From IMG/VR virus record IMGVR_UViG_3300034082_004296, positions 1-64,000 of that record: a stretch of DNA of 64,000 bases; one strand, 5' to 3'. The translations under genes were made by a program, and so were the position numbers. Under the pieces are notes generated by a model. That model did no database searches, was not told the origin of the DNA, and was given only the letters and a program-made list of their open reading frames with translations. The stretch is from a virus. Positions within the stretch are counted from its first letter, which is position 1; each line of letters opens with the position of its first letter. This document shows positions 23,941 through 59,172 of this stretch, in pieces.

Positions 23941-24543
23941 ATGGAACAGTTTACCCCAATCGTCATTGCTTTCATAACTGGAGTATTAGGCCCGGTCTTG
24001 ATTATACTAATTAAAAATCGACTAGATAAAATAGCTAAACCGGACATGTTAACTGATGCTCTTAAGACTGGTGAACTAGTTACTGCACGTATTGATCACA
24101 TAAGAGAAGATTTTAAAGCTGATCGAGTATGGATCTCTCAGTTCCATAACGGAGGGCACTTTTATCCAACTGGCAAGTCAATCGCTAAATTTAGCGTGAT
24201 TTATGAAACTGTTTCTGCAAATACACAATCAATTCAAAGCAATTTTCAAAACATTCCAGTAAATCTATTTACTAAATCAATGAATAGGTTATTAGAGGAA
24301 GATACGATTGAGATACCTGACTATAAAGATGAGACTATTCCTACATATGGCCTTAAGTATATTGCAGAAGAGTCTAATTGTAAATCTAGTTATCTTTTTT
24401 CGATAAAAACAATAGATGATAAATTTATAGGAGTCTTAGGCGTAGACTTTACTAAAAGAAAGACTAGACTTGATCAAGAAGATATTAATCACCTAATCGT
24501 TCACTCTTCCTCTTTGGGCGGAGCCTTAATGAGCACACACTAA
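23941..24543 (+). CDS. N-terminal TM plus GAF-like domain protein (possible holin)
   Basis: single TM then RVWISQFHNGG...FIGVLGVDF; architecture like T4 holin T. Confidence 0.5.
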   Translation: MEQFTPIVIAFITGVLGPVLIILIKNRLDKIAKPDMLTDALKTGELVTARIDHIREDFKADRVWISQFHNGGHFYPTGKSIAKFSVIYETVSANTQSIQSNFQNIPVNLFTKSMNRLLEEDTIEIPDYKDETIPTYGLKYIAEESNCKSSYLFSIKTIDDKFIGVLGVDFTKRKTRLDQEDINHLIVHSSSLGGALMSTH

Positions 24544-24546
24544 GAT

Positions 24547-24741
24547 ATGAAGAGACTCGTAGAAAACTTTAGAGAGTTTCTAGATCTAGCTAAGATCAAT
24601 CAAGGACCGGATGGATGGACAATCTATGGAGCCAATCCCAAAAAGAAAAAGCGAAAGCTTAAAACTCGTCGTCCTCATCGTCTAGGTCGAATTGATCTTG
24701 AAAAGAGAGACGAGGATTTATCGGAGAATACTCCCAATTAA
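24547..24741 (+). CDS. small basic protein
   Basis: MKRLVENFREF leader-like start; overlaps convergent ORF by 83 nt. Confidence 0.45.
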   Translation: MKRLVENFREFLDLAKINQGPDGWTIYGANPKKKKRKLKTRRPHRLGRIDLEKRDEDLSENTPN

Positions 24742-24916
24742 GTAGAACATCATCTAGTTCTTCATCGATAGAGATTAGAGTTTGAAAATAGGAAGAATCA
24801 TCTGACCCTTTTCCAATAATAATATTTTCTCTAATCATATCTATTTTCTTAATAATAGAATCAGTTAGTTCCTTTTTTAGAGCAGCCGATGCTGCCATAA
24901 CATCTTTTTCTTTCAT
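24659..24916 (-). CDS. hypothetical acidic protein
   Basis: TAAAAC-N18-TATAAT promoter (24922-24951) ends 5 nt before ATG. Confidence 0.6.
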   Translation of the reverse strand: MKEKDVMAASAALKKELTDSIIKKIDMIRENIIIGKGSDDSSYFQTLISIDEELDDVLLNWEYSPINPRLSFQDQFDLDDEDDEF

Positions 24917-24985
24917 GGTTTATTATATCTCAAAACGGTAGATAAGTTTTAGAATAAATAACATTATAAAATAAACCTTTGAAAT

Positions 24986-25450
24986 ATGCGAATTAAGAGA
25001 CTTTATGAGGCTGATGATATTCAACAGATGCCTATGAACGGACAAGCACCAGCTGCAATGCCTCAAGCTGCACCACAAATGCCAGACATGGCTCCACCAA
25101 CTCCAGTACAATCACCGGCGGAGATGATGCCAGATTTTAGCTTTGAGGAAGAGCCACATGGAAAAAAAGAAGACCCGCAAGAGGCTTTACCTCAGCCTGA
25201 TGTGATGAACTTGACTATTCAAGAACTAATGGATCGTTGCCAAAGCATCAATCCTTTGGTATGCATGGGATTGGAGCAATTTATCAACTCAAATAAGGAT
25301 GCAATCATGAGCCAAACTACAGGAGATTCTCCTGAAGAGGATGTATTAGATACTGAGACTGATCTTAACTTTTCAAAACAAATGGAACCACAAGCTCCTG
25401 AATTTTCACTAGATCAGCCGGCTGCAGAGTTAGACTTTCCACAAGAATAA
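24986..25450 (+). CDS. acidic Pro/Gln-rich late protein
   Basis: MRIKRLYE start; late promoter 24953-24960. Confidence 0.7.
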   Translation: MRIKRLYEADDIQQMPMNGQAPAAMPQAAPQMPDMAPPTPVQSPAEMMPDFSFEEEPHGKKEDPQEALPQPDVMNLTIQELMDRCQSINPLVCMGLEQFINSNKDAIMSQTTGDSPEEDVLDTETDLNFSKQMEPQAPEFSLDQPAAELDFPQE

Positions 25451-25453
25451 TCA

Positions 25454-26191
25454 GTGAAGATAGAATCGATTAAGATAATCGATGGTAAGAATCGATGGAG
25501 TGAGTCTAGGAAAAAGTTAGTTCATATAGTATTGGATTTAGGCAAATATGAAGAATTGCCTTCAAATAAAATACCTGGATTCTATGAAAGACTTAAGAAA
25601 TACATTCCGACTCTACAGAAACATCGATGCTCAGTAGGAAGAGCTGGAGGATTCTTTAAAAGGGTAAAAGAGGGTACATGGATGGGTCATATTATTGAAC
25701 ACATAGCCCTAGAACTTCAGACTCTTGCTGAAATGGAAACTGGATGGGGTAGAACAAGAGGAGTAAAAGGAAAGATTGGGATATACAATGTTGTTTTTGA
25801 ATATGTGGATGCAGACTGCGGAAAGACTGCGGCAAATGAAGCGATTCGGGTGGTTAAGGAAATAATCGCTGATCGTGATCCAAAGATAGATGGAATAGTC
25901 TCAAAATTAAAAAAGATGAAGAAAAAAAGATTAGACGAAGGTTTTGGTGCTATTTCAATGGAACCAGATACGGCAAAACGAATACTTGAACCTGATACCT
26001 CACGTGCAAGCGCTATGATGTTTTATTCGGGATCATCTGGGACCGTTCCAACTCACTGGAATAATTCTCCGTTCCTTGCGGGAAGAAGTGGGGGCAGCGC
26101 ATTCGGATCTAATCCTAGAGCAGACAAAAAGACTAGAGTAATGTCATACCAAGAATTTGTGGAGGCTCATAAGAAGTTTACGAATAAATAA
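25454..26191 (+). CDS. stand-alone cyanophycin synthetase N-domain protein
   Basis: residues 1-145 match CphA1 N domain: HRC59...EGTWMGH79IIE82H83IALELQ...GRTR; no ATP-grasp or Mur domains. Confidence 0.85.
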   Translation: MKIESIKIIDGKNRWSESRKKLVHIVLDLGKYEELPSNKIPGFYERLKKYIPTLQKHRCSVGRAGGFFKRVKEGTWMGHIIEHIALELQTLAEMETGWGRTRGVKGKIGIYNVVFEYVDADCGKTAANEAIRVVKEIIADRDPKIDGIVSKLKKMKKKRLDEGFGAISMEPDTAKRILEPDTSRASAMMFYSGSSGTVPTHWNNSPFLAGRSGGSAFGSNPRADKKTRVMSYQEFVEAHKKFTNK

Positions 26192-26209: not shown

Positions 26210-26512
26210 ATGGCTTACGTAAAGAGTTTTAAGAGCTTTCAAAATGCTGAAGAAAAGGCATCCAAAGAGGTCGAAGCTGGTGCAAATCCTCAAATGATTA
26301 AGGAGGAGGACGTAATGCTGACCGACCCTACATTAAAGGACTTAAGCGCAAAGATATTACAATACAAGACTCAAATAAACCTTTGGGAAAAAGCAATCGA
26401 GGAACGTAAAAAAGTATTGGGCGATACTCTTGCCAAAAACGCAGCAGCCGCTCAAAACGCAGCTGCAAACCAGCCACAGGCACCAACTCCAACACCAGCA
26501 CCCACTGCATAA
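26210..26512 (+). CDS. hypothetical virion cargo candidate
   Basis: MAYVKSFKSFQNAE; late promoter 26183-26190. Confidence 0.65.
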   Translation: MAYVKSFKSFQNAEEKASKEVEAGANPQMIKEEDVMLTDPTLKDLSAKILQYKTQINLWEKAIEERKKVLGDTLAKNAAAAQNAAANQPQAPTPTPAPTA

Positions 26513-26961: not shown

Positions 26962-27696
26962 ATGACGGAACTACAGTTAATCACCGATATAAATGATGAG
27001 ATCACCTTCTCGGGTGCTTTACCTTACGGTCTTCCAGAAAAGGAAATCAAACGTATCATTGAAAACGATTCAAGATACTTTTGGGATAACTGGAGACATG
27101 CTGTTGAGAGCAGATATCTGCTTCTACCTTTAGAGCTATTTCAAAATGCTACGTTTAAGAAGTTTAGACAAATCCAATTACCTGACTGTGTACAGTTCGT
27201 TGTCGATTTTAAGGAGGCAAAGGGAGGATCCATCTTTGGGACAATTGATAGAGACTTTGCCGAACAGAAATTTATAGGTTCGGAGCTATTTTTAACTCCC
27301 TTCATTGGGGAGAGCATCATGTATAGGACAGTAATGTTCTCGTTTCTAGACATAACTAAAGCAATGGTTCTAGATACGATTGCGTATGATTATAATAAGA
27401 ACAGTAAACTTTTAGGTGTGGTAGGTAGAACTCCTAAAACAAATGCAGTAATTAAAGTATTTAAAAAACTGGACCAGGACAAGTTATTTGAAGACGAGAT
27501 GTTTCAACGATATGTTCGTGCTCATGCAAAGGTAAGACTTGCACATATGCTCCAGTCATTTGACTACACTTTACCTGGAGGAGTCAAGGTAAATTATCAA
27601 AATATCGTTACCGTTGCTGAAAAAGAAATGGAAGACGTTAAGGCGATGATGAAGGGCGAAAATACGCCCGATTGGTTTTATCTTACTAGACAATAA
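26962..27696 (+). CDS. neck protein (T4 gp13-like)
   Basis: C-terminal LPGGVKVNYQNIVTVAEKEMEDV resembles gp13 LPGGVTLNG motif. Confidence 0.6.
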   Translation: MTELQLITDINDEITFSGALPYGLPEKEIKRIIENDSRYFWDNWRHAVESRYLLLPLELFQNATFKKFRQIQLPDCVQFVVDFKEAKGGSIFGTIDRDFAEQKFIGSELFLTPFIGESIMYRTVMFSFLDITKAMVLDTIAYDYNKNSKLLGVVGRTPKTNAVIKVFKKLDQDKLFEDEMFQRYVRAHAKVRLAHMLQSFDYTLPGGVKVNYQNIVTVAEKEMEDVKAMMKGENTPDWFYLTRQ

Positions 27697-27705
27697 TTAT
27701 TTAAT

Positions 27706-28083
27706 ATGGCAAGCCTTAGAGACTTTTATACCCGAACTGATGAGGATCCTAAATACTTAGGCGATCGTTTAGAGATTAGTGATGAATTAGAGTCTGCGAT
27801 ACAGCAAGTAAAGATGACTCTATTTACCCGAAAGGGAGAGGTTCTAGGAGAACCCGACTTTGGAATAGAATTAGATAATTATCTTTTTGAATATTCGATC
27901 GATCCTAGTCGATTGGGTAAAGATGCAACTGGTCAAATCAATAAGTATGTAGCAGAAGCACGAAAAAGAAAGATAACTGTTTCTCCTTCACTATATCCGG
28001 ATGACAAGGCCAATCGTGACATTTTCGTACTTCTTATCGACATACCTGAGACAAAGAACTCCTTTGCTCTATTCTACGACTAA
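27706..28083 (+). CDS. baseplate wedge protein (gp25-like)
   Basis: LFTRKGEVLGEPDFG...YLFE signature. Confidence 0.8.
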   Translation: MASLRDFYTRTDEDPKYLGDRLEISDELESAIQQVKMTLFTRKGEVLGEPDFGIELDNYLFEYSIDPSRLGKDATGQINKYVAEARKRKITVSPSLYPDDKANRDIFVLLIDIPETKNSFALFYD

Positions 28084-28501: not shown

Positions 28502-30226
28502 TTAAAGTTGACCTTCGCCAGAAGTCTCGCCTCCGTCTTTTACCTCACTACCTCCGCCTTCAGCGGCAGCTGCAGCTGGAGCAGCGGCTGCACCTCCTCC
28601 ACCTGGAGCAGCACCACCTGGAGCAGCACCACCTGGAGGTGGCGGCATCTCTTCAGACTCTTCCGCATCCGGTTTCTGATCGAACCATGCAAGGTTTGAC
28701 TTGATTTCGGAATCTGTCATTTTTAATTCTTCTCTGATCAAGTATTCGGTAGAGAAATATGGAGTACCGTCGTCTTTCATGACTCCTTTTTTGGCTTGGA
28801 ACGAAGCTATTCGTTTGGCTTCTATCTCGTTCTTCTTCATTTCCTCAAACACGTTATCGTTGTAATACTTGATCCCAATAGCGTTATTAAACTTATAGTC
28901 TTCTGCAAGTTCTGGAAAGTCTAGACACATTTGCAAATACCAAGGTTTTACCATCATCTCTGAAAAAGCAGTTCGTAACCTATTAATAAATTTTTGATAA
29001 CGAACTTCCTCCCTAGTGATACCCTCAGCGTTTAGAGTAAATGCACCCATTCCAGATTGGCCTTCCCATCTTGAATAAGGAATCTTGGAGTCCATCTTTA
29101 ATTTTTTATAGAAATAGTTTAGGAGCTCTGATCCTGAAAGGTTTGGACCTGGCGTCTGTAGGGCTTCTATTTTTACCTGCTGATTCTGATCGTTTACTGG
29201 CAGGATGTAGTTTTTATAGAATAAGATATTTGGTTTACCATCAACATTAAGCTCTCCGGAATCTCCGTTAAAGTAGATGTCTTCCTTAAACATGTTTAGG
29301 AATTCACGAACATCTTCTTGACCCTTTTGAAAACTTTTACTTCCAATCGGTACAGTTGTTGTTAATCGAATTGGAGCATTCATAACATGCCAAATAACTT
29401 TACTATGTTCGATTATTCGAAGTAGGTTAAAGGATCTGATTAGACGCTCAACAAAACTTACTCGTTTTGTTCTAAAATGATTGGCATATGAAATATAGAT
29501 TACTTGAGAGTCATTAAGAACCCTGGTTGAACCAGTCTGCTGGTCGTATTGTAACCATTGTAAAAATATCTTGCCCTTAGCATCTTTCTGTAACTGAGGA
29601 GCTATGCTGGCGGGATCCAATTCCTTAAATCCTATTATCTCTTTAGGTTTATCTAAGTTATCATAGATGATCTCAAAAGAAAGGTGGCCTTCGACTAAGA
29701 ATTGGAAAGCATACTGCCAGGCTGATATTCCTTCTCCAAAGCTCCATGCATTATAGATACGTTCAAAGTTATCATGATACTTTTTAAGTACCTTTTCCTG
29801 AAAGTTTAGACGTTCCTCTTTGGTGTCTCCTCGATAGAGAATCTTTCCAGTAAGGTCCTTTGCATACACAAACCTTTGCTCTTCATCATATACGATCATG
29901 TCATCAACAATGGTCTCAAGAATAAACTCAATCTCACCATTTGCCGCAACGTCTCTTAGTCTCTCTCTTTTTACCACATAGTCTAACTGAAAAAATGCAA
30001 TGGCTTTAGTTCTTAATTGTGATGTAGTATCTGAGATTGCCATCGAAAACTTAAGTAGCTCATCGTTTGCATTGAGTCTAGAAGTCCTAGACTGTAGCTG
30101 ACCCTCAATAAAACCAATTGCCTGTGAGTTTCTAAGCAAAAGGTCCTCGTGTCGAGTACCAAACTTACTGAGGCTCGATAAGGTACCGTTTGTTTTTCTT
30201 CCTGATGTGTCTAAGAATCCACTCAT
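28502..30226 (-). CDS. portal protein (T4 gp20-like)
   Basis: 574 aa; LRIIEHSKVIW, IPYSRW, ITREEVRYQKFINRLR resemble gp20 conserved blocks. Confidence 0.85.
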   Translation of the reverse strand: MSGFLDTSGRKTNGTLSSLSKFGTRHEDLLLRNSQAIGFIEGQLQSRTSRLNANDELLKFSMAISDTTSQLRTKAIAFFQLDYVVKRERLRDVAANGEIEFILETIVDDMIVYDEEQRFVYAKDLTGKILYRGDTKEERLNFQEKVLKKYHDNFERIYNAWSFGEGISAWQYAFQFLVEGHLSFEIIYDNLDKPKEIIGFKELDPASIAPQLQKDAKGKIFLQWLQYDQQTGSTRVLNDSQVIYISYANHFRTKRVSFVERLIRSFNLLRIIEHSKVIWHVMNAPIRLTTTVPIGSKSFQKGQEDVREFLNMFKEDIYFNGDSGELNVDGKPNILFYKNYILPVNDQNQQVKIEALQTPGPNLSGSELLNYFYKKLKMDSKIPYSRWEGQSGMGAFTLNAEGITREEVRYQKFINRLRTAFSEMMVKPWYLQMCLDFPELAEDYKFNNAIGIKYYNDNVFEEMKKNEIEAKRIASFQAKKGVMKDDGTPYFSTEYLIREELKMTDSEIKSNLAWFDQKPDAEESEEMPPPPGGAAPGGAAPGGGGAAAAPAAAAAEGGGSEVKDGGETSGEGQL

Positions 30227-31769: not shown

Positions 31770-32903
31770 TTAGACGTAGAGCAAATCTAGCGGAGATTCT
31801 GAAAAGTATTGCAGAACAAACTCATTAAAGGAATCAAAGGTAAGGGATGAATCGTGTTTTGACATAAACGAATAAAGGTCATTGACGTCTTTGATTAATC
31901 GAACATTTCGATAGTCCACATTGTATTTTTTACGAAGATCAGCCATTACCTTATTCCATAGGAACACTCGATAGCCTTTCTTAATTAGATCAATTGACTG
32001 GTTCTTACCTGCCATATCACTATCGAATAGGATTAAGGTATTTGATTTGCTTAATAGGTTTTCTAACAAGAGTTTGCTTTTAGAAATACCAGTAGTTGCA
32101 ATAGAATTATTTAGGAACATTGAATCTATTTGACCTTCAGTCACTAGAATAGGTTTTGAAAAGTCAACATTCAATACATTAAAATAATTATTGATCGAGT
32201 CAATATCAGCAATAATGTCATCTTCGACATTTCGAACAAGTCCGTTCTTTTTTAACTCAGAATAGTTTTTAATTAGATATTTTGGTCCACTGATTCCTTC
32301 TCCAATTCGACGTATTGCAAAGCCTAGGATCTTACCAGTTCGTTGGTCTAGATTAAAAAGATAGATTTTATCCTCTCTTGAATCAAAATAACTGCACCTT
32401 TGAAATGCAGGAAGAGTGTCAAGGGCTCGATTCTTTATGAATAGTCCAAGTTCAGTGTCTGGATCAATCTCACTACATGGAGTCAATGAAAATCGAAGAG
32501 CTACCTCTTCTATTTTTAAGAGATGATCGCTTGCGCTTTTATTGATTAGAAGTTCAATTAACGATCCTCTCTTCTTTTTAGAAGTTTGGGGTGTCCACTT
32601 GACTTGGGCCTTGACATCAGGTAAACCTAATGAATATTTGAGCGCAAACTTAGAGATAAACTTAGGAATATCTGATTTTACTCCACATCCATCATTATAA
32701 CATTTATAGAAACCTCGATCTGGATATATGTTACCTCTCTTTTTTCTGGAATCTGTTTTAGAATCACCACAATATGGGCAGGCAAAATTGATCTTATCGC
32801 CAGATTCATATACCTCCTGTTTAAATCGATCTTCTGGAAATCTTTTCTTTAGGACATCCTTTATAAAGCTATATATGTTATAACCCGTCAATAGATCAAG
32901 CAT
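31770..32903 (-). CDS. DNA primase (T4 gp61-like)
   Basis: CPYCGDS...CYNDGC zinc finger; TEGQIDSMF and FDSD TOPRIM motifs. Confidence 0.9.
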   Translation of the reverse strand: MLDLLTGYNIYSFIKDVLKKRFPEDRFKQEVYESGDKINFACPYCGDSKTDSRKKRGNIYPDRGFYKCYNDGCGVKSDIPKFISKFALKYSLGLPDVKAQVKWTPQTSKKKRGSLIELLINKSASDHLLKIEEVALRFSLTPCSEIDPDTELGLFIKNRALDTLPAFQRCSYFDSREDKIYLFNLDQRTGKILGFAIRRIGEGISGPKYLIKNYSELKKNGLVRNVEDDIIADIDSINNYFNVLNVDFSKPILVTEGQIDSMFLNNSIATTGISKSKLLLENLLSKSNTLILFDSDMAGKNQSIDLIKKGYRVFLWNKVMADLRKKYNVDYRNVRLIKDVNDLYSFMSKHDSSLTFDSFNEFVLQYFSESPLDLLYV

Positions 32904-34332
32904 TTTCCTCCTCTTCTAATTCAAGAACAGGGTTTGCTTTTTCCTTCTTCTTCGTCATTCTTTTCAAATACTTATCGAGTTCAGGTTTTGGAACTATTGT
33001 AGTATTTAGGCCATATCGAGTAATGACTCCCAAGTATTCCTGAAAATCTTCCTCAGCTACATCAACATCAGCATTGCCGATTACCTTCCAGAATTTTTCT
33101 GGAACTTCAATGTATTCTAGTGTTTCTTGATCCACTATGTATAGAGGGTAGATATCAGCATCAGTCAATACTTTTTTACTCTTGACGGTTACTACTTCAA
33201 CTGCACGTTTTAAATTAGTATCAAGCGAGCTCATCTTCATTGCAGTAAGTAATCGATTTATTGGTTCAATTATTAGGGAAAAGAACTGTGAATCGATATC
33301 CATTAATAGAGCGATCTCGTCAGGATAGGTTCCAGGTGAGTATGCAAATACATCATGTCCGCCTTCATTTGTTTCAGGATTACAGTAGTAAAACTTGATC
33401 TTGTCCTTTTCTCTAATCTTAGGATATTTCTCAATAAGTCCAGTCTTAATTAGGATATGATTATAGATGGCGGCAGCTCGAGGAAAGATCGAGATTCCTT
33501 TCTTAAGTTCAAGTCTCTCTTCACTCGTGATATACTTATTATAGACTCGAATATTGAAATTAAATGCTAATTCATCTGGATGAAGAGAACGGGCTTCATT
33601 TTTAAGAACAGTTAGTCGAGGAATAATATCTTTTTCAATATCGAGTCGCTTACCTCGATCCATAATAAAGGAGGTAAGTTCAGTTAGTTTGTCTCGAGCC
33701 CAAATCGGATAAGAACCCTTAACTGGTTCAAGACCTTTGATTATCAAGTATCTCTTTTCTTGTGGTTCTAATTCATAATTTGGATTAGGTTCGTATGCCA
33801 CTCGAATAGCATAGTTTTTCTTTTTAAGCCAAATGCCAGTCTCTGACAAGTTTTCTAATTTAAACTTAAGTCGGTTTTTAGTATTAAATACTTTTCCATA
33901 TTTCTCAAAGCACATATCAAAATAATTGGAAAGTCGATGTCGGTCAATATTGATACAGATATTTAGTGCTTCATCTTTTGAAAAATCTGCACCAATGATT
34001 GAATCTAGGGCAGAGTCAAACTGTACATAGATTGAATCAGTATCGGTGTAAATAGCAGCTTCATCCTCAATCTTATTAATAGTATACCCATCGATTCCTA
34101 ATAATTTATGGAGTTCAGTGTCAAGATGCCACTTTTCTAGAAAATAGTGATTTACTGCCTTAATTGAAAACTTGATTAGATCTTGGCCCTGTAGAGTGAT
34201 TGACTGTGCGATATCTGGATTGTAGAAATAGAACCACTTATTCCCAAATGCTCCATAAATAGAGTTAATTAAGATCTTTATCGCGTTTTGCTTTAGATCA
34301 AGTTTTTTAATATGTTTTTCTTTATCTTCCAT
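32896..34332 (-). CDS. family B DNA polymerase, C-terminal half only
   Basis: KILINSIYGAFG (motif B), YTDTDS (motif C), KKKNYA; lacks exonuclease and motif A. Confidence 0.85.
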   Translation of the reverse strand: MEDKEKHIKKLDLKQNAIKILINSIYGAFGNKWFYFYNPDIAQSITLQGQDLIKFSIKAVNHYFLEKWHLDTELHKLLGIDGYTINKIEDEAAIYTDTDSIYVQFDSALDSIIGADFSKDEALNICINIDRHRLSNYFDMCFEKYGKVFNTKNRLKFKLENLSETGIWLKKKNYAIRVAYEPNPNYELEPQEKRYLIIKGLEPVKGSYPIWARDKLTELTSFIMDRGKRLDIEKDIIPRLTVLKNEARSLHPDELAFNFNIRVYNKYITSEERLELKKGISIFPRAAAIYNHILIKTGLIEKYPKIREKDKIKFYYCNPETNEGGHDVFAYSPGTYPDEIALLMDIDSQFFSLIIEPINRLLTAMKMSSLDTNLKRAVEVVTVKSKKVLTDADIYPLYIVDQETLEYIEVPEKFWKVIGNADVDVAEEDFQEYLGVITRYGLNTTIVPKPELDKYLKRMTKKKEKANPVLELEEEENA

Positions 34333-36235: not shown

Positions 36236-36529
36236 ATGAATACAAATCATATAAAAACGTTTGGTCAATTTGTGAATGAATCTACTGAAGCGGGTTGGGA
36301 TCCAACTACTATTTCTTCTGTACAGGGAAAACTGGCGGTTACTAAAACTGGTAAACTGGACACAGCTACAATTCAAGCCCTTAAGGGTTATCAAGAAGGA
36401 CACTCAATATCAGTAACTGGGAAGATAGATAAAGCAACTCTAGCAAGTATGGGAATAAAAGGAAAATGGGTAGATGCAGGACATACATCGGCTGAACGAA
36501 AAGCAGGAATGAATTCAGCGATTCGATAA
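36236..36529 (+). CDS. peptidoglycan-binding domain protein with capsid-targeting-like leader
   Basis: HIKTFGQFVNE then VQ..L...TGKLDTATIQALKGYQ....VTGKIDKATL (PG_binding_1-like). Confidence 0.7.
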   Translation: MNTNHIKTFGQFVNESTEAGWDPTTISSVQGKLAVTKTGKLDTATIQALKGYQEGHSISVTGKIDKATLASMGIKGKWVDAGHTSAERKAGMNSAIR

Positions 36530-54454: not shown

Positions 54455-55462
54455 ATGGATCACTATGCAAATTTAGGAGTTCCCAAGACTGCTACCCAAG
54501 AAGAGATAAAAAAAGCATATCGAAAGCTTGCAGTAAAGTATCACCCAGACAAGACTAATGGTAACAAGGAGTCGGAAGAGCTTTTTAAAAAGATTTCAGA
54601 CTCATATACTGTGCTCTCAGATGAAAGGAAGAGGGAAGAGTATGATAAAAAATCTAGAGTAAATTCTAACTGGTCTTCAGGATATGAGAGCACGGGTTTT
54701 GGATTTGACGATTTTGTGAGAAATTTTGCGGATGCCGACTTTAGAAGAAGATCGAGTGATCGCGCAAGAAAGACACAGGGACGCACTCATCCAACTCCAC
54801 CTAAAACCGAACATCTTAATATTTATGTACACGATAAAATAGATTTAAAGGACGCGATTTTAGGTAAAAAGATCGAGATAAGTTTTAGTAGAGAAAAAAT
54901 AAATTATACTGGCAAGGCAGGTAACACGTTAACCTTTGATAAGATCGATGAGGAGAAAGAGATTAACATTAGTATCGACCTTAGAAAAAAATACATTGCG
55001 ATTAAACGTGATACTGGAGCATACATAATATCTGCTAGGGTACCTGGTCTAGGAAATGAGGATGTAATCACACAGTTAAACATATGGGGAGAGATTGAAC
55101 AGGTTCCTCTGATGGGAGACTTGCATGTGACACTGGAACTAATTATGCCTGAAAACATTAGGATCGAGGATAACTGCGTGATACAAACAGTCGATATATC
55201 TTTATCAAAATTACTCTTTAATGAGACCAAGATCAAGATAGAGACGATTGTCGACAAAAAATACGAAGTTGACTTTAATGGTCCGAAATCTGCATCTAAT
55301 CTTAAGTTTTCAATACCTAATGAAGGACTGGTTGATGGCCAAGGTAAGATCGGAGAATACCTAGTAAAATTTAACGTGACCTTGCCTCAGGTTGAAGAGT
55401 TACCAAATAAGGATTTAGTAAAATTAAAGTCGATATTATTAAATTGCGAAAATAAAACTTAA
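54455..55462 (+). CDS. DnaJ-family co-chaperone without zinc finger
   Basis: J-domain with KYHPDK; DnaJ C-terminal-like domain. Confidence 0.9.
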
Positions 55463-55508: not shown

Positions 55509-57485
55509 TTGTCAAATCTAAAATCAGCACAAACTAACACTAACGATTGGGTACTAATCGTTGAAAATGTAGGTGAAAAACTTCAAGTAAGGGATTCATC
55601 TACGACTGGCACAGTCCTCGAAGGAGTATGTGCGGTATTCGGTCAGATGAATAACAATCGCCGAGTATACGAAAAAACGGAATACTTACCTCACCTTACC
55701 TATCTTCAAGAAAAGATTAATAAGCGTCAGTTAGTAGGAACGGTTGACCACCCTCAACATTTCGAACCAAAATTAAGCGAAGCTTCACACATTATTGAAG
55801 GCTTAACATATGACGGTGGAGATAAAGTATACATTAAAGTAAGACTCCTAGAAAACACTCCACATGGTAAATTAGCGAAAGCATTACTTGACGGAGGAGT
55901 TCAGTTATCAGTTTCTTCAAGAGCAGCTGGACAGGTAAGTGAGAGTGGTTATGTAAAATTACAGCGAATCTTTACCTATGACTTAGTAGGAGAACCTGGA
56001 TTTACTGATGCAATTCTACGTAAAACAGTTAGTGAATCACTAAAGAATGACTTTTCAATGATTACTGAGAGTTATAACTCGATGAAGGAAAACTCTTTTA
56101 TTCATAAGTCTGGACTAATGGATATTTCAGAAAATTTAAACTTTGCAGATAATTTTAAAGTCTATAAGATAAATAAATTAGAAAATGGTTCAGGAACACA
56201 GTTCCGAGGAACTTTGCAAGAACAAAAAAATAACAACACAATGGCCGAGTTTGTAACAAAAGAACAAATGGACAAATATTCAGAAGTTCTTAAAACACAA
56301 TTCAATGGAATTAAAAAAGAACTTAAAAATCACAAGTCTGTTTTGGAGTCTGCTCAATCAGGTAATGGATCAACTAATTCAGAATTAGTTGGATTCGTAA
56401 ATTATTTAGCAGAATCTCTAGAAGGAGTGATTAATTTCGCTGATTATCTTTCTCACAAACTAAACGAGTCAGTTAAATATACTGAGCACGTTTCTGAGAC
56501 AGTTAACAACTCTATCGATTATTCTTCTTATTTAGGAGAAAAATTGAACCAGTCAGTTAACTATCAAGATTACCTTTCAACTAAGGTGAACGAGTCAATC
56601 AACTACGCAGAGTATATTAAAGAAAATGTAAACAATTCTATTAAGTACCAAAATTATTTGGCTGAAGAACTAGATAAAGGATTACAGTATGTTGAATACG
56701 TTGCTGAAGGAACTAATCGTTCTATTGAGTTCGGAGAATATCTTTCAGAAAATATTAACTTAAACAGAGATTACTCTCAATATGTTGCTGAAAAATTAGG
56801 ACAGTCTATTGGATACTCTGAATATTTAGCTGAATCTCTAGGAGACGGAAACCATGTAGGTACTCGAAATGTTTTAGGTAAAGTTTCTAAATTAAATGAA
56901 TCTAATTCAATTGACAATCTAATCTCTAAGGTTGATCAAGTGATTACTGAAGTAAACGATAAGTCATCTAAAGCAGTTCTTGAGAGCAAGTATCCTTTCT
57001 TAAAGGTTATGGGAGAAGCAAACAAGAAAGTTTTCTTTAACTTACAATCAGACACTAAACAAGCTATCGTTGAAGCTCTTAACGGATCAGTTTGGTTTAA
57101 CGAAAACGACATCGTTGGTATCATGGAAGCTGTTGTAAATCACAAAGAACAAAATATTCCTACCTATATCAGATTCATGCCAGTAGAATACAAAGCTACT
57201 TGGAACGAAATGAATGAAAACGAAAAAAGTAAAGTTCACGCAAAAGCACAGCTTTATACAGTAAACACTCCATACCAAGTTAAAGCATTTTGGGATGATA
57301 TTGATATGAGAGGAATCAATGAAAGAATTGAAACACAAAAATATAACACAAAAATAACGCAACAACTCAACGAGAGCCAAAGTACAGAAGGCTTAATACC
57401 TGTAAATCAGGTTGTTGAGATGCAGAGAGGTTACTCTCAAGGTTACTTAGAAACAATGTTGAGAAACGCTGGTTCTAGATTGTAA
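55509..57485 (+). CDS. prohead protease (gp21-like) fused to repeat scaffold
   Basis: NNNRRVY, GTVDHP, VSSRAAG, TYDLVGEPGF; TTG start; late promoter 55482-55489. Confidence 0.85.
   Translation: MSNLKSAQTNTNDWVLIVENVGEKLQVRDSSTTGTVLEGVCAVFGQMNNNRRVYEKTEYLPHLTYLQEKINKRQLVGTVDHPQHFEPKLSEASHIIEGLTYDGGDKVYIKVRLLENTPHGKLAKALLDGGVQLSVSSRAAGQVSESGYVKLQRIFTYDLVGEPGFTDAILRKTVSESLKNDFSMITESYNSMKENSFIHKSGLMDISENLNFADNFKVYKINKLENGSGTQFRGTLQEQKNNNTMAEFVTKEQMDKYSEVLKTQFNGIKKELKNHKSVLESAQSGNGSTNSELVGFVNYLAESLEGVINFADYLSHKLNESVKYTEHVSETVNNSIDYSSYLGEKLNQSVNYQDYLSTKVNESINYAEYIKENVNNSIKYQNYLAEELDKGLQYVEYVAEGTNRSIEFGEYLSENINLNRDYSQYVAEKLGQSIGYSEYLAESLGDGNHVGTRNVLGKVSKLNESNSIDNLISKVDQVITEVNDKSSKAVLESKYPFLKVMGEANKKVFFNLQSDTKQAIVEALNGSVWFNENDIVGIMEAVVNHKEQNIPTYIRFMPVEYKATWNEMNENEKSKVHAKAQLYTVNTPYQVKAFWDDIDMRGINERIETQKYNTKITQQLNESQSTEGLIPVNQVVEMQRGYSQGYLETMLRNAGSRL
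56168..56175 (+). promoter_or_regulatory. internal late promoter for nested scaffold
   Basis: GATAAATA inside protease gene, upstream of in-frame ATG 56241 with A-rich leader. Confidence 0.5.
56394..56843 (+). repeat. about 11 tandem 14-aa (42-nt) repeats in scaffold
   Basis: units such as YSSYLGEKLNQSVN, YQDYLSTKVNESIN, YAEYIKENVNNSIK. Confidence 0.85.
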
Positions 57486-57513: not shown

Positions 57514-59172
57514 ATGGCACGTACTAAAATTTTCAAACGTTCAAGCGACAATCGCTTAGCGAACACATGGCAGCCGATTTTAGAAGGTTACGGTGCTGAT
57601 GTTGCTAAGACTCCATGGTTAGCTGAGTATGCTCACAACCACGCGATCTTTGATAACACTACACCTATCTTCGAGCAAACGACTCCAGGTGTATTTTTCC
57701 AAACTCCAGGTTCTCTTGGTGGTTTTATGGGGAACCCATCAGCTCCAACATCAGCAATGACTCCGTTCACTGCAGGTGCTAAGAATTCTTTCTCAGCTGA
57801 TGCTAACGGTTCAGGTGATAAATTTCCATCACTTTTACCAGTTGCTATTCAAGTAGCAGCAAAAACTATTGGTTTTGACCTAGTTCCAGTTATCCCTATG
57901 GATTCTCCAGTTGGATTCCTTCCTTACTTGGATTATCTATATGCTGGCGGTAGAACTTCTACTGGTAACTTCGATCCTTATTTGGTTAAGTTAGAAGGTT
58001 TAACATCAGATAGCTTCGCTGTTGCTCTTACTCCTGGTGATGCAGTAGCTATTGTTCCTGCTGGTGATTTCACAGCAGAGTTCGTTGGTTATTCACGTGT
58101 AGACGGTACAATAATCATCAAGATCACAGACGACGGTTCAGTTGACGGCGCTACTACTGCTGCTGCAGAGTATGTTGGTGCAGCGATTACTATCGATGGT
58201 AACGCCCTTGTTGTTGGTGCTGCATGTACTGGAGTTTCTCTAGTTTCTGCATTAGAAAACCACATCTCTGGTTTCACTTCAGTATCTGATGCAGATTACG
58301 CAACTACTCCATTCAATGGTTCTTACCTTCCTTCTACAGGATCTGTACCTGGATCAATGAAGAGAGAAGCTGGTGAAAACTCTAAATTCCGTCAAATGGG
58401 ATTAAGAATGTTCACTAAGTTTGTTGAGGCTGAGACTGACCAAGTTTCTATCTCTGCAACTGTTGAGCAGATCCAAGACTTGAACAGAGTTTGGAACTAT
58501 GACGTTATCTCTATGTTAGAGAACGTAGCGGTTAATGACTTGGCTCAATCAATCAACAAAAGATTAGTTGACCGTGTATTACAATTAGCTGATGTTCACT
58601 CTACAGAAGTTAACTTAGTTGAAGGTGGTGGTGGTGTTATTACTGACCTTGACTTGACTGCTGGTGGATTTGATAACACTTCTACATTACAAAGAAGATT
58701 AGTTACTAAAGTTCTTGAAATGGCAAACTTGATTTACCATAGAGGACGTTTCGGAGCTGGTACTTTCTTAGTAACTAATGGACGTGTTGCTTCTGCAATG
58801 GCTGATGTTGCTGGTTACTCAATCGCGCAAGTTCCAACTGATATGGGTGGAGTTGCAGGTAACCTTTACCCAGCTGGTAAAGTTTATGGAGTACAAGTTT
58901 ACGTTGATCCTAACATGGCTTGGGGAGACTCAAGAATCATGATTGGTCGTAAAGGTGCTGACGAAGAGCCAGGTGTTAAATTCATGCCATATATCATGGC
59001 TGAATCTCTTCAGACTATTTCTGAAGGTACATTCTCTCCAAAAATCGGTATGAAATCAAGATACGCGATTACTGAAGCTGGATGGCATCCTGAAACTCAG
59101 TACATTAATATTAATGTTACTGGAGCTGCTCTTGGAGTTCTTACAGGTTCAAATGTACTAGTAGGTATCTAA
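57514..59172 (+). CDS. major capsid protein (T4 gp23-like)
   Basis: DLVPVIPMDSPVG, EQIQDL, PYI...TFSPKIGMKSRYA; follows protease; strong codon bias. Confidence 0.92.
   Translation: MARTKIFKRSSDNRLANTWQPILEGYGADVAKTPWLAEYAHNHAIFDNTTPIFEQTTPGVFFQTPGSLGGFMGNPSAPTSAMTPFTAGAKNSFSADANGSGDKFPSLLPVAIQVAAKTIGFDLVPVIPMDSPVGFLPYLDYLYAGGRTSTGNFDPYLVKLEGLTSDSFAVALTPGDAVAIVPAGDFTAEFVGYSRVDGTIIIKITDDGSVDGATTAAAEYVGAAITIDGNALVVGAACTGVSLVSALENHISGFTSVSDADYATTPFNGSYLPSTGSVPGSMKREAGENSKFRQMGLRMFTKFVEAETDQVSISATVEQIQDLNRVWNYDVISMLENVAVNDLAQSINKRLVDRVLQLADVHSTEVNLVEGGGGVITDLDLTAGGFDNTSTLQRRLVTKVLEMANLIYHRGRFGAGTFLVTNGRVASAMADVAGYSIAQVPTDMGGVAGNLYPAGKVYGVQVYVDPNMAWGDSRIMIGRKGADEEPGVKFMPYIMAESLQTISEGTFSPKIGMKSRYAITEAGWHPETQYININVTGAALGVLTGSNVLVGI

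Follow-up and report, generated by a model that had tools for sequence, protein, structure and literature searches.

A CphA1-type cyanophycin synthetase N-domain fused to a conserved phage protein in a T4-related freshwater phage: a candidate capsid-delivered endo-cyanophycinase

The stretch of DNA analysed here, referred to as the window, comprises the first 64,000 nt of the IMG/VR virus record IMGVR_UViG_3300034082_004296. It carries an open reading frame (ORF), P0001, whose 245-aa product joins an N-domain of the type found in the cyanophycin synthetase CphA1 to a small phage protein. The GTG start codon of P0001 lies 3 nt past the stop of the upstream gene, and a related strain has ATG at 25454. 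The parts of the ORF that are needed for the argument are as follows.

25454..26191, plus strand: whole ORF P0001, 245 aa, CphA-N domain followed by a small phage protein, GTG start
25454..25915, plus strand: CphA1-type N-domain, residues 1-154 (PF18921, 7lg5 alignment, AlphaFold2 (AF2) model, Foldseek)
25628..25702, plus strand: metal-binding and catalytic motif Cx19HxxEH, spanning C59-H83; H57, S60, F67, R70 and E87 lie nearby (translation, 7lg5 alignment)
25916..26188, plus strand: partner module, residues 155-245 (stand-alone homologues, alignment)
25452..25923, plus strand: cassette of 472 nt that is missing from a near-identical relative (X20 contig)
25916..25939, plus strand: M155 to L160-D161-E162, candidate [LI]-x-E prohead-protease site at the junction (alignment)
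26144..26182, plus strand: C-terminal amphipathic helix with SYQEFVEA (AF2 helix 232-243)

The first-pass annotation had matched the N-terminal part of P0001 to the N-domain of CphA1, and profile and structure searches bear this out. The Pfam profile PF18921 (Cyanophycin_syn) covers residues 25-138 with an E value of 8.4e-44; the score is 148.7 bits, the cut-off being 27, and a second profile run on P0001 gives 150.6 bits. In a phmmer search of PDB, residues 7-144 align to residues 7-144 of Synechocystis CphA1 (7lg5, E 4e-39), free of gaps to about residue 103. The AF2 model reaches predicted local distance difference test (pLDDT) values of 97-98 across residues 1-160. Its best seven Foldseek matches are all CphA1 chains at E 8e-16 (7lgj/7lg5/7txv at the top), and unrelated chains at E 0.03-0.1 account for 7 of the best 20 ranks.

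A direct count on the translation confirms that C59, H79, E82 and H83 form the Cx19HxxEH motif, numbered as in SuCphA1 and exact in spacing. The second-shell residues H57, F67 and E87 and the polymer-contact residues S60, R70 and Y111 (Y110 in SuCphA1) are kept as well. In CphA1 this site binds zinc and cuts cyanophycin internally, i.e. it is an endo-cyanophycinase (PMC9262961). Judged by sequence and predicted fold, the N-terminal part of P0001 is a CphA1 N-domain with an intact hydrolase site, from which we infer catalysis. The earlier proposal that the phage captured only the hydrolytic domain is thereby upheld, as all catalytic residues and most of the substrate-contact residues are intact.

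Compared with the SuCphA1 N-domain (PDB 7LG5/7TXV; Sharon et al. 2022, PMC9262961), the phage domain has the same fold, ~58% identity and identical motif numbering, whereas the phage protein lacks the G and M domains, is fused to a phage protein and is hydrophilic at positions 14 and 17; it would be expected to act on the host polymer rather than to prime its own synthesis. HxxEH on the active-site helix is common to the N-domain and the M16 inverzincins, such as pitrilysin and insulin-degrading enzyme, but the structural likeness is local only, the third metal ligand of the N-domain is an upstream Cys, and its size is ~160 residues versus up to 1000 in M16 (PMC9262961). No M16 enzyme appears among the Foldseek matches listed, in which CphA1/CphA2 chains ranked first. 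The cyanophycinases CphB/CphE (Peptidase_S51), presumed to share the substrate polymer, are unrelated serine exopeptidases that release beta-Asp-Arg dipeptides, whereas the phage domain is of the metallo-endopeptidase type; neither the ORF nor the record has a PF03575 (Peptidase_S51) match.

The absence of both synthetase domains, also claimed in the first-pass annotation, was confirmed over the whole virus record of 176,210 bp. In a tblastn search with two full-length Flavobacteriaceae CphA1 proteins, only the N-domain was found, and the ATP-grasp G and Mur-ligase-like M domains left no trace. PF18921 is likewise the only Pfam domain in the ORF, and a cellular comparator showed all CphA1 domains. 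The record is ~70% complete, so that ~30% of the genome may be missing; for the available 176 kb, the same search rejects a split cphA with G and M domains encoded elsewhere in the phage.

The truncated architecture, taken alone, would also be expected of a decaying fragment of a full-length cphA or of a mis-assembled chimera. Against a 79%-identical homologue (L001), the domain has a ratio of nonsynonymous to synonymous substitution rates (dN/dS) of 0.16 and the remainder of the ORF one of 0.13; values for the partner module are 0.13-0.22. Both halves of the fusion gene are under purifying selection, and, in the absence of G/M remnants, a decaying cphA fragment is rejected, which settles a doubt that had been raised with the original annotation. 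The sequence downstream of the domain is a conserved phage gene, the 245-aa form occurs in independent samples and many lake runs, and the phage domains form a monophyletic clade with hundreds of members (see below). We therefore regard the fragment or chimera explanation as refuted, with hardly any probability left to it.

The stretch that follows the domain had been described as a flexible linker. It is instead a conserved phage protein of 91 aa, which related phages encode on its own. IMG/VR loci L004-L010 match residues 155-245 only, and two of them (L007 and L010) have a stand-alone ORF of 91-93 aa at the syntenic place, between a ~155-aa acidic gene and the next conserved gene. In the alignment, the stand-alone homologues begin exactly at M155 of P0001, a residue that is retained in 4/4 fused forms and preceded by an A-rich stretch. 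From this alignment, M155 is the former start codon of the partner gene, and P0001 is a cassette fusion of the N-domain to a pre-existing conserved 91-aa phage protein. The junction motif RLDE corresponds to residues 159-162, and E162 is invariant in 10/10 aligned sequences. Residues 155-245 have no Pfam, PHROG or usable ESM Atlas match.

A cassette-free allele was found in the metatranscriptome run X20, in which position 25451 is joined to 25924 by eight other letters, ATGAGATT, restoring a stand-alone gene that starts M-R-L-K-R-L-D-E. The flanks of this contig differ from the record at 1/103 and 5/170 bases. An allele on such nearly identical flanks implies that near-identical strains exist with and without the 472-nt cassette.

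The gain or loss of the cassette among such strains, together with the retained M155 and the A-rich stretch before it, would also suit another explanation, namely that the fusion is an accident of cassette insertion without a stop codon and that the small protein may also start at M155. The same enzyme would then act on the same substrate without being packaged, as a late cytoplasmic auxiliary enzyme that fragments cyanophycin or prevents nitrogen lock-up. The lack of an N-terminal tag on P0001 and of a known virion function for the partner is compatible with this explanation; the fusion is in frame, however, in homologues down to 73% identity, and late timing would be ill-suited to feeding replication in the same cell. 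Considering also the tags described below, we judge an unpackaged enzyme to be rather improbable.

The C-terminus of P0001 reads RVMSYQEFVEA followed by HKKFTNK. The SYQEFVEA helix is conserved in the partner homologues, and the C-terminal block of the AF2 model, including helix 232-243, has a mean pLDDT of 87. A late-promoter-like ATAAATA motif for the next gene, which starts 20 nt on at 26210, lies at 26184-26190 and so shares bases with the final sense codons and stop codon of the fusion gene; this overlap may account for the strong conservation of the C-terminal T-N-K.

A search of 5.8 billion proteins retrieved 342 relatives of similar length. Many relatives are N-domains alone (169-194 aa) or have unrelated sequence added at the C-terminus, and their contigs reach hundreds of kb. 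Among longer proteins, solo forms score 206-249 bits at 65-73% identity, and the best true synthetases, all from Flavobacteriaceae or other Bacteroidota, score <=181 bits at 55-61% identity, leaving a gap that separates the two. The maximum-likelihood tree places 24 phage solo rows in a single clade (support 100/97), nested in a 96/93 group with Bacteroidota-type CphA1, and a FastTree of 157 rows agrees with it. The Cx19HxxEH motif is kept in 240/240 homologues retrieved. Within a 37-row phage clade, H57, C59, S60, F67, R70, H79, E82, H83, E87 and Y111 are 100% conserved.

Positions 14 and 17 distinguish the phage clade from its cellular relatives. The former is K/R in 31/37 phage-clade rows versus Y in 14/19 cellular CphA1 rows, and the latter is mostly E, D or K in the phage clade versus V or I in the cellular rows aligned there. 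The isolated SuCphA1 N-domain is soluble and active in trans only with the substitutions Y14S and I17T (PMC9262961). The charged residues at the same two positions thus provide independent evidence of adaptation to stand-alone life. As a part of our best explanation, the domain would have been captured once from a Bacteroidota CphA1 and would then have adapted to lacking the synthetase domains.

Five further residues, S37, R58, I80, R100 and A127, are invariant in the phage clade and variable in cells, which could be taken as a sign that the metallopeptidase has been repurposed for a substrate other than cyanophycin. Such a substrate might be a host defence or stress protein, or another isopeptide or Arg/Asp-rich polymer, and attack on a host protein at entry would recall T4 IPI or Alt. 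Capsid-delivered T4 proteins do serve host take-over and counter-defence, and the part of the cyanophycin groove that the M domain contributes is missing. However, there is no variation in the cyanophycin-contact residues S60, R70 and Y111 or anywhere in the active-site shell, no new protein-binding surface or domain was identified, and the nearest cellular relatives come from cyanophycin-cycling Bacteroidota. A change of substrate therefore appears to us a minority possibility, of about the same weight as the unpackaged enzyme.

The surroundings of the ORF and the head genes of the window bear on when the protein would be made and whether it would be packaged.

24954..24960, plus strand: late-promoter-like ATAAATA at the head of the transcription unit, 26 nt 5' of the gene start at 24986
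24986..25450, plus strand: acidic 154-aa gene whose product begins MRIKRLYE; it is coupled to the CphA-N gene and has syntenic counterparts in L007 and L010
26512..26955, plus strand: 147-aa neighbour with the N-terminal T4-CTS-like tag KTYHQYINES (KSYQEFINEA in L010); CTS, capsid targeting sequence
26962..28083, plus strand: adaptor-like gene (phrog_211, E 1.5e-8) and gp25-like baseplate gene (phrog_43 and PF04965, weak)
28502..30226, minus strand: portal protein (phrog_213, E 8e-60)
55509..57485, plus strand: gp21-type prohead protease (Peptidase_S77) with scaffold-like region (PF03420, E 1.4e-10)
57514..59172, plus strand: T4 gp23-type major capsid protein (PF07068, E 3e-35)

The record further codes for head-closure and gp25-like proteins, DNA polymerase, primase, helicase and topoisomerase II. 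Its gene set, including the gp23-type capsid and the gp21-type protease, identifies the phage by sequence as a distant member of the T4 superfamily. The adaptor-like and gp25-like genes share their strand with the CphA-N ORF and are closely packed with it, and, with the portal and head-closure genes also nearby, the earlier placement of the ORF among late-type head genes stands. The ATAAATA motif resembles the T4 late promoter core and is found 51 times in the window versus 26 expected; over the record, 45/107 copies lie 10-40 nt 5' of gene starts, mostly at 17-23 nt, and another copy precedes the protease gene by 20 nt. From this motif and the neighbours in the late-type head/neck gene block, the CphA-N gene is probably expressed late. 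Run X20, which covers a small share of the region, gives no sign of transcription of the CphA-N gene; its sole informative contig is the cassette-free allele, and DNA carry-over is possible.

In T4, the CTS MKTYQEFIAE acts in targeting through residues 4 and 7 and in processing by gp21 through residues 8 and 10, and foreign proteins fused to it are packaged and ejected (PMC8442874, PMC9026906). The packaging-like tag that had been noted at the end of P0001 withstands scrutiny in part. SYQEFVEA is present, and its Y-Q-E-F-V equals residues 4-8 of the T4 CTS; it belongs to the partner, however, matches only the targeting half of the CTS and sits C-terminally. Elsewhere in this phage, the pattern [FY]xx[FY][LIVM]x[ED] occurs within the first 20 residues of 11 genes versus 3.1 expected, and most of these tagged genes, including the neighbour at 26512, show a stereotyped K-S/T-F-x-Q-F-I-N-E-S. 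A second N-terminal motif, [KR]L-x-E, is found in 6 ORFs genome-wide, too few for statistics; two of them lie just 5' of P0001, at 24547 (two genes away) and at 24986 (adjacent).

Residues 296-449 of the S77 ORF (56394-56856) form a strict 14-residue repeat of ~11 copies, each with [FY]xx[FY][LIV], and eight of these continue with x-E, matching the N-terminal tag pattern. It is possible that the N-terminal tags mimic the scaffold repeat unit of the protease-scaffold protein. A complex prediction of the scaffold repeats (285-455) with the 91-aa tail scored 0.00, which counts neither way.

Across the phage clade, the N-domain is found in three architectures. In class A, the tag M-K-Y-[LI]-x-x-Y-x-[LIV]-F-E-[SA] precedes the N-domain; in class B, the N-domain is followed by L-Q-E-S-I-R-R-I-L-R-E-E (LQESIRRILREE) and then by variable C-terminal domains; and in class C, to which the phage of the window belongs, it is followed by the M-x-x-K-R-L-x-E of the partner protein. 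All three have [LIV]-x-E at every domain junction, and, where the available sequence is long enough, genes for Gp23 and S77 are present in several records of classes A and B. A tag with [LIV]-x-E beside the domain in each architecture is hard to explain by accident, which argues against the unpackaged enzyme considered above.

The class-A locus also has a counterpart in the present record. Positions 132140-135321 are syntenic with it (L119, L036), with flanks that are 45-70% identical and include DUF5824, and in the corresponding slot a similar tag (MKHLLTYQQLFE) is attached to a 202-aa protein that is unrelated and belongs to no known family; the cargo of the class-A locus gives a 60% match to P0001. 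A slot with swapped cargo suggests that the N-domain behaves as exchangeable cargo behind address-like tags.

Several other tagged or tag-like sequences were observed. In L002 (3718-8390) and L003 (7568-11815), arrays of small genes of the class-B type all start with M-N-L-Q-E-[SN]-I-R-R-I-L-R-E-E, and the class-B peptide, besides linking the N-domain to varied C-terminal domains, recurs inside long ORFs in the manner of a punctuated polyprotein. A NUDIX hydrolase (168117-168611 of the record; L038) starts with the T4-CTS-like tag MLRFKDFLNE, and a protein with a peptidoglycan-binding domain (36236-36529) starts with a tag of the same kind, ...KTFGQFVNES. No tagged protein from other parts of the genome has a function that would establish delivery by the capsid.

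The T4 internal proteins IPI-III and Alt (PMC8442874, PMC9026906) are a known parallel, with an S77 protease, a Gp23 capsid, exchangeable tagged cargo and an [LI]-x-E junction in common with the present system. The order of parts differs, however, for in P0001 the junction motif follows the cargo and the CTS-like piece is C-terminal, and the peptidase family of the P0001 cargo has no known member among the T4 internal proteins.

The hosts are likely to be cyanophycin-storing freshwater Flavobacteriia or other Bacteroidota, as suggested by the relatives of the domain. The nearest cellular N-domain, at 57% identity, is from a Flavobacteriia metagenome-assembled genome (MAG) of Lake Erken where cphA and a Peptidase_S51 cyanophycinase gene form a pair; a Flavobacterium MAG has an Asparaginase_2 (isoaspartyl peptidase) gene beside these two. 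The host store of arginine and aspartate that the first-pass annotation had envisaged is in keeping with these cphA-cphB(-iaaA) sets in the likely host group. Phage DNA is found in lake-water metagenomes from many studies.

A host with its own synthetase raises the possibility that the phage domain modulates that enzyme, either by supplying primers in trans and boosting cyanophycin synthesis or as a decoy that binds CphA1 or the polymer. The isolated SuCphA1 N-domain indeed renders a primer-dependent CphA1 primer-independent when supplied in trans (PMC9262961). However, the Bacteroidota CphA1 proteins nearest to the phage clade carry the motif themselves, extra nitrogen lock-up would be of no evident benefit to a lytic phage, and the full conservation of the catalytic residues speaks against a mere binder. 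Modulation of the host synthetase is thus very unlikely, far more so than either the unpackaged or the repurposed enzyme.

The explanation that we prefer, and that we consider about evenly poised between right and wrong, is that P0001 is a late, probably capsid-loaded and protease-released endo-cyanophycinase directed at cyanophycin-storing freshwater Flavobacteriia. Insertion of the 472-nt cassette exactly before the start codon of the partner protein would have created a chimeric late protein. P0001 would be made late and would enter the prohead by way of the partner or tag, with the Y-Q-E-F-V helix at the C-terminus and the shared N-terminal motif KRL-x-E as tag elements. The gp21-type protease would then cut after L160-D161-E162 and free an 18-kDa peptidase within the capsid, and this peptidase would go into the next host together with the DNA. 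There it would cut the host's cyanophycin chains internally, and the resulting soluble (beta-Asp-Arg)n pieces and extra chain ends would be passed to the host's cyanophycinase and isoaspartyl dipeptidase. Stored arginine and aspartate would presumably become available early in infection, to the benefit of the phage.

Several observations weigh against this preferred explanation. With respect to packaging, a metabolic enzyme has no obvious need for injection, the partner protein matches no virion-protein family, and P0001 has no tag at the N-terminus, where the T4 CTS works, its first residues already being those of the N-domain. The Glu of CTS position 10 is absent from the motif at its C-terminus, and no CTS is known to act at a C-terminus. 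The S77 protease of this phage is distant, and L160-D161-E162 is a candidate cleavage site. With respect to metabolism, the record, at ~70% completeness, has neither cphB nor iaaA; with respect to the host, it has no tRNA genes. At the active site, E90 of SuCphA1 is T90 in P0001, a position that is variable in cellular CphA1 too, with T the commonest residue. The M-domain residues S603 and E607, which help to hold the polymer in SuCphA1, are missing from the phage protein; moreover, hydrolysis by the CphA1 N-domain is slow (hours), and cyanophycin granules are largely resistant to it (PMC9262961).

In its widest form, the claim is that a widespread family of T4-related freshwater phages packs a stand-alone endo-cyanophycinase by means of exchangeable tags and injects it to open a nitrogen store, which we advance only tentatively and as less probable than the account of P0001 itself. 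If true, a bacterial storage polymer would for the first time be the target of an enzyme encoded by a virus, and the cryptic third active site of cyanophycin synthetase would for the first time have a natural stand-alone form. That no such protein had been described in phages, as the first-pass annotation stated, agrees with our full-text literature search, in which no paper on a phage-encoded or stand-alone CphA N-domain was found. The catalytic domain is known; its self-standing, virus-borne and tag-coupled form is what is new.

The hydrolase site of the CphA1 N-domain was recognised only in 2022 and has been known only within the synthetase; a selected, presumably soluble, phage-borne solo form in hundreds of variants implies that the domain has a life of its own. 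Solo N-domains may offer ready-made enzymes for cutting cyanophycin into defined oligomers, and their presence in phages suggests that phages target cyanophycin, in which many aquatic Bacteroidota store nitrogen. They are also a clean natural case in which a cargo domain moves among tagged slots (N-tag, linker-tag and head-module fusion), and a cargo that is easily assayed makes T4-like capsid addressing testable in uncultured large phages.

The phage itself is so far represented by metagenomic relatives throughout. The closest relatives of its portal are uncultured huge phages, GenBank phages gave no match to P0001 by tblastn or to 12 kb by megablast, and PHROGs has no family for the CphA-N ORF, the partner protein or most of the neighbours. 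A complete DnaJ gene, with J domain and C-terminal domain, lies at 54455-55462, directly 5' of the head protease and capsid genes. The DNA polymerase ORF at 32896-34332 (minus strand) matches only the C-terminal part of family-B profiles (phrog_262 positions 502-841/856), and the polymerase therefore appears to be split. Just 5' of the CphA-N unit lie two further genes that are conserved in L007 and L010: the 200-aa product of one (23941-24543) has a hydrophobic helix at its N-terminus and matches GAF weakly, and the other, an 85-aa ORF on the minus strand (24659-24916), overlaps the end of the 64-aa gene at 24547-24741.

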